A program made the position numbers. Below are positions 1 through 6,000 of a stretch of DNA of 25,461 nt, piece after piece. How positions within the stretch are numbered: the stretch's first letter is position 1; each line of letters starts with the position of its first letter. Source of the DNA: Gemmatimonadota bacterium (GTDB lineage Bacteria; Gemmatimonadota; Gemmatimonadetes; Longimicrobiales; RSA9); NCBI GenBank assembly GCA_040905425.1, contig JBBDRO010000063.1, positions 1 to 25,461 of the forward strand, given 5' to 3'.

Positions 1-3000
1 CTACGATCGGCGCGGCAAGCTGGTGCCCGACACGCCGCCGCCGACCCGGGTGAGCAGAGCGCTGGAGGCGCTGGAGCGGCAGCATCGGCGGGGCGGAAAT
101 CACGGCACCGGTGGTGGAAGTGGCGGCACGACGCCGGGGCCGTACACGGCTTCCCGTAGCCGCTTCAAGTTCGACCGGCTGGTCCCCTGGGAGGTGGAGG
201 CGCGGGCGCGCGAGGCGGTGGATCCGAGTTAGGGGCTTTCGGCGCGCGGAGGCGCAGAAGTGCGAGGCAGGACCAGGCCGCGCATGTGATCAGTCGCGTG
301 CGCCACCGCGCCAGACGTATTCCACGACGCTGCCATGCTCCGCTCCTCCTGCGGATGGAGGTTGCCAGAAGAAGACGCTGTTGCCGCCCCAGGCCACGAT
401 CTCGCCAGGGCACGGGAGGTCGGTGGCCACCCTGCCGCCGCGCACACGCACGTCACAGTTCACGGAGCGGGTGTGCATGGTGGTGGGCTCCGTCCACATG
501 TAGTCGCCGGTGGCCGGCATGTAGTGGCCGTGGCTCACGACCAGGACCTCCACCGCGAGCAGCGCCATGCCGATGATGACGGTATGCTCTTCCAGGTAGC
601 GCCGGTGAGCCGCCACGCGGTCTGCCGCGCCTTCGCCCACGTTCGAGAACTCGCCCGGGTCGGGCGGCCGCGGCGCGCGCCAGGAGGGGGGCGGATCGGA
701 GATGCTGTCGGGCGGCTCGGCATCTTCGCTACGGACGACGATGGGGTAGTAAAGGCTCGTGGCCAGTAGCGTCCGACCCGGTCCTTCCACAGCCCACCTG
801 TGATAGGGGATCCCCTGCCCCCAGTACGGCGTCTCATCGATGATCCGGGGCCGCCCGAAGGAATTGCCCAGCTCGAGCGCATATGCGGCACTCGTGCCGC
901 GCGCTCCGGGACGGACTCCGCTCTCGACGCGGCCGTCTCGCAGCAGGTCCAGGCGTACGTCGCGGATTCGTGAGGATGGAACCAGTAGCGGCGTGATCGG
1001 CTCCTGCAACGCCACGGGCTCGCGCAGCTCAAAGAGATCGCTCCACCCACTGGGATCATCGGCGCCGGCGCATCCCAGAACGGCCGCGCAGAGCGTGAGC
1101 GGTAGAGTACGTCGTGGGTTCCCGGCACGGAATGAAAGCGACATACGCCCAATTATACGTCCGGCACGCCGCGTCACGCACCGCTCGTCCCTGAAGCCGC
1201 GCATCCTGGCAGAAGCCACGAACGATGATGCGCGGGCGCGCGAGGGGGCGGGCCCGGACGGGGTGGATCCGAGCCAGCGGACGTGGTGCAGCGCTTACGA
1301 GAACAGCCCCAGCTGACCACCCGGCTGCACCGGCACGCGGAACGCCGCGCTGGAGAGCGGCCGGCGCTCGGCGTTGAGGCCCAGGCGCTTGCAGGTGGCG
1401 CGGAAGAGCGCGCCGGTCTGCTCGGCGAAGATGCCCTGGCCGCGCATGCGGGCGCCGAAGCGGGCGTCATTCAGGGCGCCGCCGCGCATCTCGCGGATGC
1501 GGTTCAGCACCTTCTCCCTGCGCTCAGGACGGTGATCCGCGAGCCACTGCTCGAAGAGGGGCGCCACGGCGTGCGGCAGGCGGACGGGGATCCAGCTGGC
1601 GCGTGTGGCGCCGGCTTCGGCGGCGGCCTCCAGGATGGCGGGCAGCTCGTGGTCGGTGAGGCCGGGGATGACCGGCGCCACCATGACGCCAACCGGTATG
1701 CCGGCGTCCGCCACGGCACGGATGGCATCCAGGCGGCGGGCGGGCGTGGCGGTGCGCGGCTCCATCACCGCGCGGAGCTCCGGATCGAGGGTGGTAACGG
1801 AGACGTTCACGACGGCGGCCTGGTGGGCGGCCAGTTCGGCCAGCAGGTCGAGGTCGCGCGTGACCAGGTGGTTCTTGGTGATGATGCCCACGGGATTCCG
1901 GAACTCGGCGAGCACCTCCAGGATGCCGCGCGTGATGCGGAGCTGCCGTTCGATGGGCTGGTAGGGATCCGTGTTGCCGGAGAGCGCTATGCTCTGCGGC
2001 TTCCAGCTCTTTGCGGACAGCGCCTTGCGCAGCAGCGCGGGCGCGTTTTCCTTCACCAGGATGCGGCTCTCGAAGTCCAGGCCGGCGGAGAAGCCCAGGT
2101 ATTCATGCGTAGGGCGCGCGTAACAGTTGTGTGTGGCCAGGCCGCCAGCGATGAACGTGCCCGTGGAAGTCTGTATGTCGATCACATCGGCGGTCTGGCC
2201 GGGTTCTACGGCGCGGACCACCTCGGGCGCGAGGTTCATTCCCCTGCCGAAGACGCTATCCAGCTTCCGCTGAATGACGGGCTGAAAGACGCTGAAAAAC
2301 CGGACGCGGTCCCTGAGTGAGCCTATGAGGCGGAGTGTGCTTGCGCCCAGCTGGCGGTCCTCGAGCTGCATGGCGAACCCGAACGTGAGACAGTAGCGCC
2401 GGACCCGCTCGAGCACCGCTTGATCCACCTGGGAAATACGGAGCGATCCGGAGGCATGGCCTGCCGCATCGAAGAAGCCCGCCACGAAGCCCCGCCGGTA
2501 GGAGCGCGTATCGCGGGGATGCTCCAGCAGGCCGTGGCTCACGGCCAGCTTGGCGAGCGACCTGGTCTCCAGCTTCGCCATGCGCGCCCGGCAGCTGGCA
2601 CCACCGTCGAAGTCCCGGAGCTCGACGTCGATTGCCAGGGTGCCCAGAAATCGTCGCAGTCGGTGGAGCGGCTCGGGGTCAGCCAACGCCACCCGCCAAT
2701 AGCTCTGGGGGAAGCCCAGTTTGCGGCTCCGCCAGCCCGGCTCGTAGCGGAACGTCCCGTCTCCGAGCGTCATGCCGGCCACGTAGCCCACCCGGTAGTC
2801 TTCATCGAACGGCTCGTCGGGGGTGACCGTTGCGTGCCGCAGCTTGTGTCCCGGTGCGAGTTGGTCCGCACGGGACCACCGGAAGTTCCTGGCCTGGAGC
2901 CAACGGTGCTCTGCAGTGGTGATGACATCAGCCTGGTCGGTCACCAGGCGCAGGGTGGGCTTCCGGGACCACCAGACCGCCTCGACCCGGGTCTTCCTGA

Positions 3001-6000
3001 ACTTCCGGGTACGGCCTGGCGCCGGGTATTCGTCGAACCCGACAAGCTCGTCCCCTTCCTCCACCTGGCCAATGGGACGCCACGACATGTCTGCGTACAG
3101 GATCGGCGTCCGGGGGTCCAGGCAATAAACACAGCCGTGCTCGCACCCCCGGTATGGATTCACGCTCACATCGAAGGGCACGTCCGGGCTGTTGTTGCGC
3201 GCCAGGATGCTCTTCGTGTGATCGCGGTAGAGCCTGGTATCGGGGGCGTACTCCTCCGACGCGCGCTCCTCGGCGTCGGGCTCGTAGGCCAGGGGCTCGA
3301 AGCGGTTCTGCGGATTGTCCGCGACGCCGCGGCCGCGGAGAACGGGCAACTGCATGCTTGGATCTTCGGTCGGGAGGAGCCGAACAGACACCGAAGATAA
3401 GATGGGGGCTAGCGGGCGCGAGGGAAAGCCCCCTGTCCGGGGGCGTCGAGGCGCCGGGTCCACGCGCCGCGAGTGGAGGGCGGCCGGGCGGCGCACCCGG
3501 CGGATACGCGCCCCCCTCAACCCGGCGTGATGACCTCCCCCCGCAGCCGCGCCCCCTCCGCCTGCACCCGCGCCACCGCCTCCTGGATGGCCGCCCGCGT
3601 CTCCGGCGACGCCCCGCCCACCTCCACGTCCTCCATGGCCTGCAGCGCGGCCATGTAGTAGTCGGTCCACACTGCCACGATGCGGGTCTGCTCCGCGACG
3701 TCCTCTCCCGCGGCCACGGCGGCGCGGCTCAAGCGCGCCTCAGCGGCCAGCCGCTCCAGCGCCGCCGCCTCCTGCTCCGCCACCAGTACGCGGGCCGTGG
3801 CCCCGTCCGCCGAGGCCAGGGTGAGGGCGGTGACCAGGGCGCAGGTACCCACGTTGGCCAGCGTGGCGGCCGAGACCTTGTCGATGCGATCCCCGTCCGT
3901 GTGGTAGAAGCGGTCGGTGAAGTGCCAGAAGAGGAGGCCGGGCTTGCCGGCGGCCAGGAAGGGCGTGTGGTCGCTTCCCCCCTCGAAGGGGTTGGTGCGC
4001 ACCACCCAGCCGGTGCGGGCGGCCTGGTCCAGGCAGCGGGCCAGCGCCAGGTCGTTGAAGTAGTGGGGGCGCAGGTCCTCCTCCGTGAGCGGCCGGCCGC
4101 CCCACTCCGTGTGCCGGTCCTCCCCGCGCGTCCAGATGGCCGAGGGGTCAGGCATCTTCTCGATGAGGAAGGTGCCGCCCGTCACCTCCGTGTCCTCCCC
4201 CACCATGTCCAGGCTCATCCCCCAGCGCACGCCCGCCGTGCGGGCGCTGTCCTCCGCCAGGTAGCGACGCGTGGAGCTGATCTCGTCCCCCCAGAGGAAG
4301 GTCACGGTGCGCGCGGGATCGGCCGCGCCCGCACGCACCAGCGCCGCCAGCGTGCGCGCCAACTCCGCCTGCGCGCCGACGCCCGACGCGTTGTCGTTGG
4401 CGCCGGGCTCCTGCACGTGCGCGCTGAAGACGAAGCGCTCCTCCGGCGCCGCGGCGCCCCGCACGTCCGCCACCAGCGTGAGCTCGTCGGCCGTGTAGCT
4501 CCGGGCGTCCGCGCTCACGCGCACCCGCACCGGCCCCTCCGCCAGCGACGCCTTGAGCCGCTCGTTGGCGGCGTACGACAGGCGCAGCCCCCACGCGCGG
4601 GCCTCCGCGTCGTAAGGGATGGAGGTGAACTGGATGCTGTTCGTGTTCACCTCCGGCTGCAGGTAGGCGGCCATGCCGTAGCTGAGGACGCCCACGGCGC
4701 CCCGCTCCTGCACCGCGCTCCGGAAGAGGCGCCCGGCGCTCGTCTCCCCGTACGCGATCCTGCCCCGCACGTCCACGCCGGCGAAGTCCTCCTCCCGCCC
4801 CTCCCCCACGTCCACCACCGCCGCCTCCACCCCGCCGGGCGGCGTGGGGAAGGAGTTGATGGCCAGCATGTTCCGGTTGGTGGCGAAGCGCAGGAGCGGC
4901 GCATCCTCCCCCACAAACGTGAGGCTCGCGTCCACGGGCTCCCACGTGGGCTGCTCCATGGGCCGGCGCTCGACGCGGTAGGTGAGGCGCTCGCCCGGTG
5001 CCGCGTCCGCCTCCAGGACGTACCCGGCGCTGTCCAGGAGCGCGGCCACGCGGTGGATGCTCTCGTCGAAGCCCGTGTTGCCGGGGAGCCGCCACCGCTG
5101 CTCCACGTAAGCGACGATGCCCTTCGCCCGCTCCCCCGAGAGCTCCTCCCGGACGGCCGCGAAGTGCGCGGCCACGGCGGGGGGCGGGGCCGCGCGCTCC
5201 TCCGCCTGTGCCGAGGTATCCGCCCTGCCGCACCCCGCGCCGGCTGCGCCGGCGAGAAGCACGGGCAGGAACACGGAGAGATGCAGGGCCCCACGTACGG
5301 GGAGACGCACGGGAATACGCACCGGCAGACCCGGCAGACCCGGCAGATCCAAAGGCAGGAGCAGCCGGCGCGTGCGCGCCCCGGCGGAGCCGGACGCGGC
5401 GTCGACGGCGCGGAGCCCCACGAAGGCGGACGGGGGACGTCGCTTACTCACGGAGGTTGGAGGGGAGGCGCGGGGACGCCAGCAGGGAGCCGAACACCTC
5501 CCAGCGGCGCTCCGGATCGTCCGCGGTGCCGCCGAGGCGCTCCACGTAGTCGGCCACCATGTCGCGGCCCAGGTTGTAGTTGATGACGTAGCTGCGGTAG
5601 TCATCCATGAAGCGGGTGCGCTGCAGGGCGCGCTCGGGGTCCATGAGGCCGTAGCGGGTCAGCCACGCGGCCGCCTCTTCGCGGGTGAAATCACCGTTCA
5701 GGTAGCGGCGGGCGGCCTCGTTGCCGGCGTAGGAGAGCTCGGCGGCCAGCGCCTGGATCTCGCGGTACTCCGCCGCCCGGGCCGGGTCGAGGCCGGCCAG
5801 CGGATAGAGCACTTCGCGCTCGAAGCTCACGCGCTCCTCCCCGGGGAAGGCCACGTCGATGCCGTAGTTGGCGCTGCCCTCCGCGATGAGCGACTGGGGG
5901 CTGAAGAGCGGGTAGACCTGGAATTCCGGCCAGCCCCGCTCCCGTACCAGCTCCTGCTCGATGAGCACGTTGTAGACGTGGTGGCCGGGGTAGCCCTCGT

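Follow-up and report, generated by a model that had tools for sequence, protein, structure and literature searches.

A putative class 1 intein at the third cluster cysteine of a PA0069-family radical SAM enzyme from a Gemmatimonadota bacterium

Background

Inteins in sister families within COG1533 are already catalogued, and the element described here is therefore not new as a kind. The NCBIfam model NF038136, "intein-containing Rv2578c family radical SAM protein", represents a sister family of the PA0069 family in COG1533 with the same insertion cysteine, and the survey by Novikova et al. (2016, Mol Biol Evol 33:783; PMC4760082) includes 48 inteins in COG1533, "SplB (radical SAM protein)". 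That survey covers Actinobacteria only, whereas the hosts considered here are Gemmatimonadota-type, Myxococcota, Latescibacterota and Binatia, and its SplB passages neither give an insertion point nor make a connection to the cluster motif. For the "MoaA" intein of Pyrococcus abyssi, passages in two reviews (PMC3922620, PMC10663303) describe a native disulfide joining Cys-3 to Cys1 and blocking the first splicing step. The host of this intein is of the radical SAM type (a supplement heading names it as COG1964, "Radical_SAM predicted Fe-S oxidoreductase MoaA"), and the insertion would presumably lie at the third cysteine of a CX3CX2C motif there as well. Inteins with solved structures, namely TliVMA (7qsu/7qss), PI-PfuI (1dq3), PhoVMA (7qst) and PI-SceI (1vde), together with I-DmoI, represent a common two-part design in which a double-motif LAGLIDADG domain is nested in a HINT domain; their hosts are ATPases, a ribonucleotide reductase and rRNA introns, and none of them sits at a metal-binding motif.

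Here, we present an analysis of a gene in a stretch of 25,461 nucleotides (the window; contig JBBDRO010000063.1 of assembly GCA_040905425.1) from a Gemmatimonadota bacterium. Sequence comparison and a structural model indicate that the gene very probably encodes, in precursor form, a radical SAM enzyme of the PA0069 family (COG1533) with a class 1 intein. New here are the residue Ala298 in the endonuclease domain, the formal CX3CX2C motif already present in the precursor, the use of one site by two intein lineages, and the preference of related inteins for metal-binding cysteines.

Results

A preliminary description had placed a 686-aa radical SAM protein of the PA0069 family on the minus strand, interrupted by a 333-aa intein, and both parts of this assignment held. 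Translation of the reading frame (Table 1) gives a protein of 686 aa reading ...GC71EHGC75VY/C78LDP...THN410/C411YARP... (slashes mark the intein boundaries), which at 475.2 bits exceeds the 360-bit cut-off of NF033668 (PA0069 family); the intein divides this match into two stretches, of which the best spans residues 410-685. The Pfam domain Radical_SAM is found at residues 441-577, and NF038135 (Rv2578c family) matches residues 42-612 with 250 bits, under its cut-off of 430. When aligned with 10 intein-less homologues (352-363 aa), the precursor has a single long gap, which coincides exactly with the intein; there is no variation in the flanks GCEHGC[VI]Y and CYARP, and the cysteines of CX3CX2C are matched by C71, C75 and C411, with the barrel downstream. 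The insertion accordingly separates Tyr77 from the third cysteine of the predicted [4Fe-4S] motif, as had been claimed. An intein occupies this site in 3 of 60 relatives and the extein halves abut in 37, while the DNA of the empty site was conserved in all nine relatives examined.

The same description held that the mature cluster site is made by splicing alone. Cys411 aligns with the third ligand, but the precursor still reads C71-X3-C75-X2-C78, the slot of the third cysteine being filled by Cys1 of the intein, and a splicing-only origin of the cluster site is therefore something that we infer rather than observe.

Table 1. Coordinates in the window of the precursor gene, its exteins and its intein.
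Feature	Position	Strand	Remarks
Whole precursor gene	1295..3355	(-)	686 codons plus stop at 1295-1297; open reading frame and translation
N-extein, residues 1-77	3125..3355	(-)	Ends GC71EHGC75VY, the first two cluster cysteines; flank invariant in 10 intein-less homologues
C71 codon	3143-3145	(-)	N-extein, first cluster cysteine
C75 codon	3131-3133	(-)	N-extein, second cluster cysteine
Intein, residues 78-410, 333 aa	2126..3124	(-)	Sole 333-residue gap against intein-less homologues
Intein Cys1 codon	3122-3124	(-)	Intein residue 1
Block B, T147-A-E-H150 (TxxH)	2906..2917	(-)	T147 in 119/120 and H150 in 120/120 alleles
First LAGLIDADG motif, GYVAGMTLGDG, residues 190-200	2756..2788	(-)	Catalytic Asp199 present; D199 in 118/120 alleles
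Second LAGLIDADG motif, GFVAGFFDAAG, residues 289-299	2459..2491	(-)	Ala298 replaces catalytic acid; aligns with I-DmoI residues 106-175
Ala298 codon, GCA	2462-2464	(-)	Second LAGLIDADG motif
Terminal His-Asn codons	2126-2131	(-)	Intein C-terminus, H409-N410
C-extein, residues 411-686	1298..2125	(-)	Opens with Cys411; contains radical SAM barrel
Cys411 codon	2123-2125	(-)	+1 nucleophile and predicted third cluster ligand; aligns with third Cys of intein-less homologues

For the long form, 120 database clusters of 673-728 aa are listed that are 59-100% identical over 97-100% of the query, and by our count PF14528 is present in 97 of them. Across this set of same-site alleles, C78, H150, H409, N410 and C411 are kept in 120/120, as are the extein cysteines C71 and C75, so that the hallmarks named earlier (Cys1, TxxH, the terminal HN and Cys+1) are conserved in 119-120 of the 120. 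The element thus has the features of a class 1 intein, i.e. cysteine nucleophiles at intein residue 1 (C78) and at +1 (C411), TxxH and a C-terminal His-Asn, in an in-frame insertion at a conserved site that is absent from orthologues.

Standard profile models did not report the splicing domain. Pfam Intein_splicing is absent from the precursor at E<=0.01, and TIGR01445 detects the genome's other three inteins (two in the GyrB gene and one in the ribonucleotide reductase gene, which LAGLIDADG_3 and Intein_splicing matches confirm) and not the one in the radical SAM gene; a sequence search of the PDB gave a best match of only E 0.06. With the standard splicing-domain models silent, the element is recognised as an intein by its alignment, its conserved residues, its fold and its homology to inteins detected by those same models. 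In the AlphaFold2 model, pLDDT averages 84.8 over the precursor, most intein blocks being at 85-96 and two, at about residues 201-220, at 65; values below 50 are confined to residues 1-18, 71-75, 413-415, 417-419 and 684-686, which include the split cluster loop. The predicted fold is that of a HINT intein: the best Foldseek matches are TliVMA, PI-PfuI, PhoVMA and PI-SceI (E 9e-15 to 1e-10), and I-DmoI is matched with target TM-scores of 0.64-0.74, sequence identity to these solved proteins being 11-22%.

The reported LAGLIDADG domain was recovered as well, through LAGLIDADG_3 (Pfam) at residues 286-354 (E 2.6e-6), two motifs and the structural match to I-DmoI. In LAGLIDADG enzymes each motif contributes one of two catalytic acids. 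By descent and fold, with two motifs and the alpha-beta-beta-alpha-beta-beta-alpha repeat fold, this is a double-motif enzyme, and its active site is incomplete: the first motif has D199, but the second has A298. Position 298 is Glu in 118/120 alleles, among them P0274, which is 90% identical to the present allele; Gly is found in P0357 and Ala in this allele alone. Given Ala where nearly all alleles have Glu, the endonuclease is probably inactive, a reading for which this single residue is the basis and which we favour with some reserve.

Within COG1533, two proteins that pass the 700-bit cut-off of NF038136, P0249 (882 bits) and P0231 (815 bits), carry inteins that are homologues of the present intein (E 5.5e-31 and 6.8e-34, respectively). 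P0249 reads YRGCSHACSY/C...HN/CFAR and the N-flank of P0231, YRGCSHSCVY, matches it. The present precursor, scoring 362.2 bits against NF038136, is a sister case and a non-member with an extein of the PA0069 family, and its intein shares only 34% identity with those of P0249 and P0231 and belongs to another starred clade in the intein tree. Inside one bacterial family, the site is used by two intein lineages that are unrelated, at about 30% identity. Further, 65 of the 107 nearest relatives of the intein are located at CX3CX2/C or CX6CX2/C across many radical SAM families, and a Cys at -3 is found in 80/107 of them vs 0/30 control inteins; the motif-bearing hosts form about 13 sequence-distinct groups among the 91 representatives with a scorable C-extein. 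Judged by these flanking motifs, the nearest relatives are concentrated at predicted cluster or zinc cysteines.

Discussion

The conserved residues suggest a canonical splicing route, in which Cys78 would carry out an N-S acyl shift at the Tyr77-Cys78 bond, transesterification would move the N-extein onto Cys411, cyclisation of Asn410 would release the intein, and an S-N shift would leave ...GCEHGCVY-CYARP..., as in intein-less homologues. Cys411 would then serve as the third ligand of the SAM-cleaving cluster. Additionally, the cysteines at extein -3 (C75) and intein 1 (C78), both present in 120/120 alleles, have the geometry of a redox trap, and a Cys75-Cys78 disulfide, or a metal on C71/C75/C78, could delay the first step until conditions are reducing. 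The Cys-3/Cys1 pair described in reviews for the P. abyssi MoaA intein has the same geometry; Callahan et al. 2011 is reportedly the study behind that redox trap. The two inteins differ in host family and in domain of life, and redox behaviour is here drawn from analogy; we consider redox or Fe-S gating of splicing a tentative and rather doubtful proposal.

That the insertion no longer splices, being a fixed internal domain or part of a dead gene with the 686-aa protein as a final or inactive product, would fit the lack of a match of Pfam Intein_splicing and TIGR01445 to this splicing domain. We regard it as very improbable, considering that the residues for all four splicing steps are invariant over 120 alleles with an identity of only about 60%, that the reading frame is open and the extein conserved as in intein-less homologues, and that the precursor model shows a disordered cluster loop, such that the unspliced enzyme would probably be without a cofactor site. 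There is somewhat more room for an endonuclease that is still active, with Ala298 tolerated, some residual activity kept or a nickase made, and homing into empty alleles possible: the first catalytic Asp is present, the rest of the domain is intact and confidently folded, and the sequence is free of stops and deletions, unlike L018, L030 and L031, which have decayed, or L025, a copy of 275 aa. Nevertheless, the Glu shared by 118/120 alleles points to strong selection at position 298, the Ala is private to the lineage of this genome, and the two motifs of such enzymes supply one catalytic acid each, which makes activity the less likely outcome. The element is thus best viewed as a probably stranded intein, which would still splice and no longer home.

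With regard to origin, the intein would have come by lateral homing into a gene already resident in this lineage. Acquisition of the whole intein-bearing gene from another phylum, e.g. from a Myxococcota-like donor, appears quite unlikely in comparison, although, among species-representative genomes, Myxococcota, Latescibacterota and Binatia MAGs hold the closest inteins (55-63% identity), and although only 3/60 relatives have any intein at the site, the two examined being of the other lineage. Against such a transfer, the C-extein is closer to intein-less homologues (65.5-73.8% identity for the best 120, with up to 73.8% for those named Gemmatimonadota/Longimicrobiales) than to intein-bearing ones (56.4-68.5% in the top-120 list), the near-twin P0274 at 96.0% aside; these lists were picked by score and are biased accordingly, and the negative correlation between extein and intein identity (rho -0.49) may stem from this selection alone. 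Moreover, GC3 in the exteins (0.87 and 0.909) is near that of neighbouring genes (0.92-0.93); that of the intein is lower at 0.826, in line with a lateral arrival of the intein, but the difference is small. Homing into a resident gene therefore remains our preferred account.

On a broader scale, the lineage could be specialised in metal-ligand cysteines, chiefly the third radical SAM cysteine, having spread over many unrelated or distantly related host families by re-use of the local pattern C-x-x-/C-[YFW]-A, with Cys1 standing in for the missing ligand in each such precursor, a [4Fe-4S] cluster, another metal or a Cys-3/Cys1 disulfide engaging the nucleophile, and redox state or Fe-S supply controlling splicing. 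We consider this full scenario unlikely; if true, it would amount to a general post-translational switch over the birth of an oxygen-sensitive enzyme, going beyond the settling of a parasite at a conserved site. As standard intein models miss this clade, radical SAM and intein censuses probably both under-count it. For the annotation of this genome, the 686-aa product is to be read as a precursor, the working enzyme being the spliced form of about 353 aa. Fe-S or redox control of protein splicing at such sites rests so far on one archaeal example, and the inteins compiled here provide naturally occurring precursors, ready for use, whose splicing nucleophile doubles as a would-be metal ligand and which are well suited to this question.

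The interrupted gene and its intein

The radical SAM gene of the window was assigned to the PA0069 family based on the NCBIfam model NF033668, which matches the precursor in two stretches with 475.2 bits (cut-off 360), the better stretch covering residues 410-685 and profile positions 73-348. Pfam models place Radical_SAM at residues 441-577 and LAGLIDADG_3 at 286-354. Homologues of 330-373 aa number in the thousands in a search limited to shorter proteins, and some of them, from MAGs of Gemmatimonadota or Longimicrobiales, bear the name PA0069 family protein. When the precursor was aligned with 10 of these shorter homologues, the sole long gap was exactly residues 78-410, and the flanks GCEHGC[VI]Y and CYARP were invariant (precursor junctions NPYRGC71EHGC75VY C78LDPRTPILY ... 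GGLATHN410 C411YARPTHEY). The insertion coordinates in the preliminary description are, therefore, right to the base (see table of coordinates). The neighbouring genes in the window include an M28 peptidase, an NHL-repeat protein and four ORFs without a Pfam match, and no hint of the substrate of the radical SAM enzyme was found among them.

Coordinates of the intein-bearing genes and junction codons (G000, the window's own genome; C32 and C105, contigs of this genome; here and in all motifs a slash marks the intein junction)
Feature	Location	Strand	Description
PA0069-family radical SAM precursor	window 1295-3355	minus	686 codons, protein start MQLPVLRGRG
Radical SAM intein	window 2126-3124	minus	residues 78-410
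Junction codons Cys75, Val76, Tyr77, Cys411	window 3122-3133, 2120-2125	minus	TGT GTT TAT / TGT
GyrB gene (L036)	G000:C32 ~59500-63520		two inteins, junctions VHN/S and CHN/T
Ribonucleotide reductase gene (L035), C-terminal TSCPD domain	G000:C105 ~25200-28970		one LAGLIDADG intein, EATNP/C...AHN/C

We further aligned 119 other clusters of the long form (673-728 aa, 59-100% identity, 97-100% coverage; MAFFT, faster settings) with the protein. Cys78, His150, His409, Asn410 and Cys411 are conserved in all 120 alleles and Thr147 in 119, and the residues required for class-1 splicing in its four steps thus hardly vary. The full-length precursor, modelled with AlphaFold2 on 82 input sequences, reached a mean pLDDT of 84.8, with ten-residue blocks of the intein mostly at 85-96 and two blocks at 65 around residues 201-220, while values below 50 were confined to both termini and to residues 71-75, 413-415 and 417-419, which represent both halves of the loop that binds the cluster. 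As a sequence search of the PDB with the intein returned only weak matches (best E 0.06, I-DmoI), a fold search was needed, and here the top Foldseek matches in the PDB were the endonuclease-bearing inteins TliVMA, PI-PfuI, PhoVMA and PI-SceI (E 9e-15 to 1e-10), with I-DmoI matched at target TM-scores of 0.64-0.74. The gap relative to homologues, the conserved residues and the fold all agree with the initial proposal of an intein with a LAGLIDADG domain at the third cluster cysteine, which confirms the observation and supports this main reading.

Pfam Intein_splicing gave no match to the protein at E<=0.01, and TIGR01445, a model of the intein N-terminal region, misses the radical SAM intein and detects the genome's three other inteins, two in GyrB and one in ribonucleotide reductase as had been described. 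The generic models, therefore, see the endonuclease domain of the radical SAM protein and not its splicing domain. The larger GyrB intein has an HTH_31 match (ORF residues 812-868) in addition to LAGLIDADG_3. The ribonucleotide reductase intein shares only 25% identity with the radical SAM intein, and the two are thus not recent copies of each other.

Cluster motif and proposed splicing

The precursor keeps the CX3CX2C pattern, with intein Cys78 standing exactly at the position of the third cysteine, and judging from its sequence it is not simply a protein without the third cysteine. We infer from the conserved residues that Cys78 would attack the Tyr77 carbonyl, after which the N-extein would pass to Cys411, Asn410 would cyclise, and the ligated product would read GCEHGCVY-CYARP, matching the intein-less homologues. 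It is plausible that the cluster site is formed only by splicing, because the model gives a disordered loop, with the barrel 333 residues away from it. Additionally, Cys75 occupies extein position -3 relative to Cys1 of the intein (Cys78), and the two residues reproduce the Cys-3/Cys1 pair of the Pyrococcus abyssi 'MoaA' intein, for which the passages on this intein in two reviews (PMC3922620, PMC10663303) describe a disulfide that prevents the first step as long as conditions are not reducing. By analogy, splicing of the PA0069-family protein could be delayed by a disulfide or by a metal bound at C71/C75/C78.

State of the endonuclease

The two LAGLIDADG motifs of the intein read GYVAGMTLGDG and GFVAGFFDAAG. 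The acid of motif 1, Asp199, is conserved in 118 of the 120 alleles, and at the acid position of motif 2, 118 alleles, including P0274, the closest relative of the window's protein, have Glu, the database protein P0357 has Gly, and only the window's protein has Ala (Ala298, codon GCA). Since each motif of a LAGLIDADG enzyme supplies one catalytic acid, the window's endonuclease is probably inactive; a literature search on I-DmoI E117A, for the effect of losing the second acid, gave nothing relevant. For most other hosts, selection seems to act on the endonuclease.

In-frame stops were seen inside same-clade inteins at three loci of public MAGs or genomes, one in L018, two in L030 and seven in L031, the last having also lost its intein junctions, and these copies are either decaying or wrongly assembled. 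A 275-aa version of the window's intein, located at the same site in a Gemmatimonadota MAG (L025), is 50% identical and about 58 residues shorter, which suggests an endonuclease domain that is partly deleted and heading towards a mini-intein.

Distribution and probable lateral origin

In 60 genomes from the window's family and order, the radical SAM site carries an intein in three (complete in G010, cut by contig ends in G015 and G001), the extein halves abut on one contig in 37, only the C-terminal half was above the threshold in 15, and five gave no match. Two of these genomes are flagged as unpublished, namely G015, which only duplicates the G010 result, and G018, which falls among the 37 with abutting halves. 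At the DNA level, the empty site is well conserved in all nine relatives examined (GGNTGCGAGCACGGNTGC..TAC/TGCTACGC...), as a homing endonuclease would require of its target.

For species-representative genomes, the closest same-site copies in PA0069-family genes are from Myxococcota or 'delta proteobacterium' MAGs (55-63% identity) and from one MAG each of Latescibacterota (58%), Binatia (56%) and Gemmatimonadota (47-50%). Filamentous cyanobacteria contain further copies, 41-43% identical, in another radical SAM family. The loci L026-L030 from Okeania, Trichodesmium, Dapis and a Microcoleaceae MAG have the intein at ASGC[LF]HGCTF/CYVPSTP, the same motif position.

The C-extein of the window's protein is 65.5-73.8% identical to its best intein-less homologues versus 56.4-68.5% to intein-bearing ones, in lists that were selected by score. 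The exception is the near-twin P0274, with a C-extein 96.0% and an intein 84.1% identical to those of the window, and the intein is, thus, the faster-diverging of the two. The intein has a GC3 of 0.826, compared with 0.87 and 0.909 for the exteins and 0.92-0.93 for two genes nearby. These comparisons favour lateral homing into a resident gene. A negative correlation between extein and intein identity was dropped as evidence for lateral transfer, as selection of the list by total score can generate the same pattern. The junction codons all end in T within a gene with a GC3 of about 0.87-0.91, and the empty sites of relatives mostly read TGC ATC TAC TGC; this may be a trace of co-conversion from a donor, or chance.

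Junction preference among relatives of the intein

A profile-free search with the intein alone against 1.84 billion cluster representatives gave 2927 matches at E<=1e-3 and 131 at E<=1e-30. The best 150 of the 2927 matches were examined for their junctions, and both junctions could be placed in 107 of them.

Junction classes among the 107 inteins with both junctions placed
Junction class	Count
CX3CX2/C	45
CX6CX2/C	20
Other CX2/C	15
CX3/CX2C (second Cys of radical SAM motif)	1
/CX2C	2
/CX3-7C	6
Lone +1 Cys	12
+1 residue not Cys	6

These relatives carry Cys-3 in 80 of 107 cases, Cys+1 in 101, Tyr, Phe or Trp+2 in 83 and Ala+3 in 44. Cys at -3 was found in none of 30 control inteins that TIGR01445 detects across 301 genomes from the same phylum, a contrast that is rough because this model is blind to the window's clade and the control genomes are related. 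The control inteins occupy about 12 different sites in GyrA, GyrB, DnaB, DnaE-like, RNR and ThyX-like hosts, as read from the flanks.

BLAST clustering of 91 C-exteins resulted in 29 host groups, about 13 of which have a radical SAM-type motif. The hosts at such motifs include PA0069, Rv2578c, DUF1848, DUF5131 (a radical SAM megacluster according to RadicalSAM.org) and B12-binding radical SAM enzymes, as well as SPASM/twitch maturases, spore-photoproduct-lyase-like proteins and one TrsS/Tes-like protein, while the other hosts include PD-(D/E)XK nucleases, a DnaG-type zinc ribbon, SF2 helicases and Mgm101/Rad52-like proteins. The B12-binding radical SAM protein P0236 has its intein at the second motif cysteine and not the third (MCPWK/CSFC). 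To check the site of the P. abyssi 'MoaA' intein, species-representative genomes were searched using P0217 as the query, a radical SAM host of HMPTM/TrsS-like type (CNLRCEP/C), and no match was returned.

Relation to known inteins

NCBIfam includes an 'exception' model, NF038136, for the 'intein-containing Rv2578c family radical SAM protein', against which the window's protein scores 362 bits, under the cut-off of 700. Two database proteins from the intein search, P0249 (882 bits) and P0231 (815 bits), exceed this cut-off, and their flanks (YRGCSHACSY/C...HN/CFAR in P0249, with the matching N-flank YRGCSHSCVY in P0231) therefore place the intein at the same cysteine as in the window's protein. 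Further, the entry for COG1964 in the survey of Novikova et al. (PMC4760082) gives a radical SAM 'MoaA' with five inteins in Euryarchaeota; the survey passages on these inteins name no insertion point. The kind is, thus, already known, and the present intein is a new member of it, within the PA0069 branch and other phyla. Full-text literature searches, screened mostly at the level of listings and with subscription journals and InBase outside their scope, returned no description of an intein at a radical SAM cluster motif, of a clade-wide preference for cluster or zinc cysteines, or of Cys1 as a ligand mimic.

In a tree of 100 inteins (quick LG+G4 search, SH-aLRT support, midpoint root), the window's intein and two other COG1533 inteins group within a supported clade of 17 (98%) that also includes inteins of DUF5131, DUF1848, B12-radical SAM and Mgm101-like hosts, while the NF038136-type inteins form a separate supported clade, and, given the supported branches, the COG1533 label must have changed at least three times. 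Different host families carry closely related inteins, and we claim no order of events because the tree is quick and in substance unrooted. The inteins of G010 and G015, both from the window's bacterial family, are 55-58% identical to those of P0249 and the database protein P0259, and about 30% to the window's intein; at least two intein lineages have, therefore, settled at this one cysteine in a single bacterial family.

Intein censuses built on Pfam Intein_splicing or TIGR01445 will overlook the clade to which the window's intein belongs. The parts worth pursuing are the preference of the whole clade for cysteines of cluster and zinc sites and the mimicking of the missing ligand by Cys1 of the intein.
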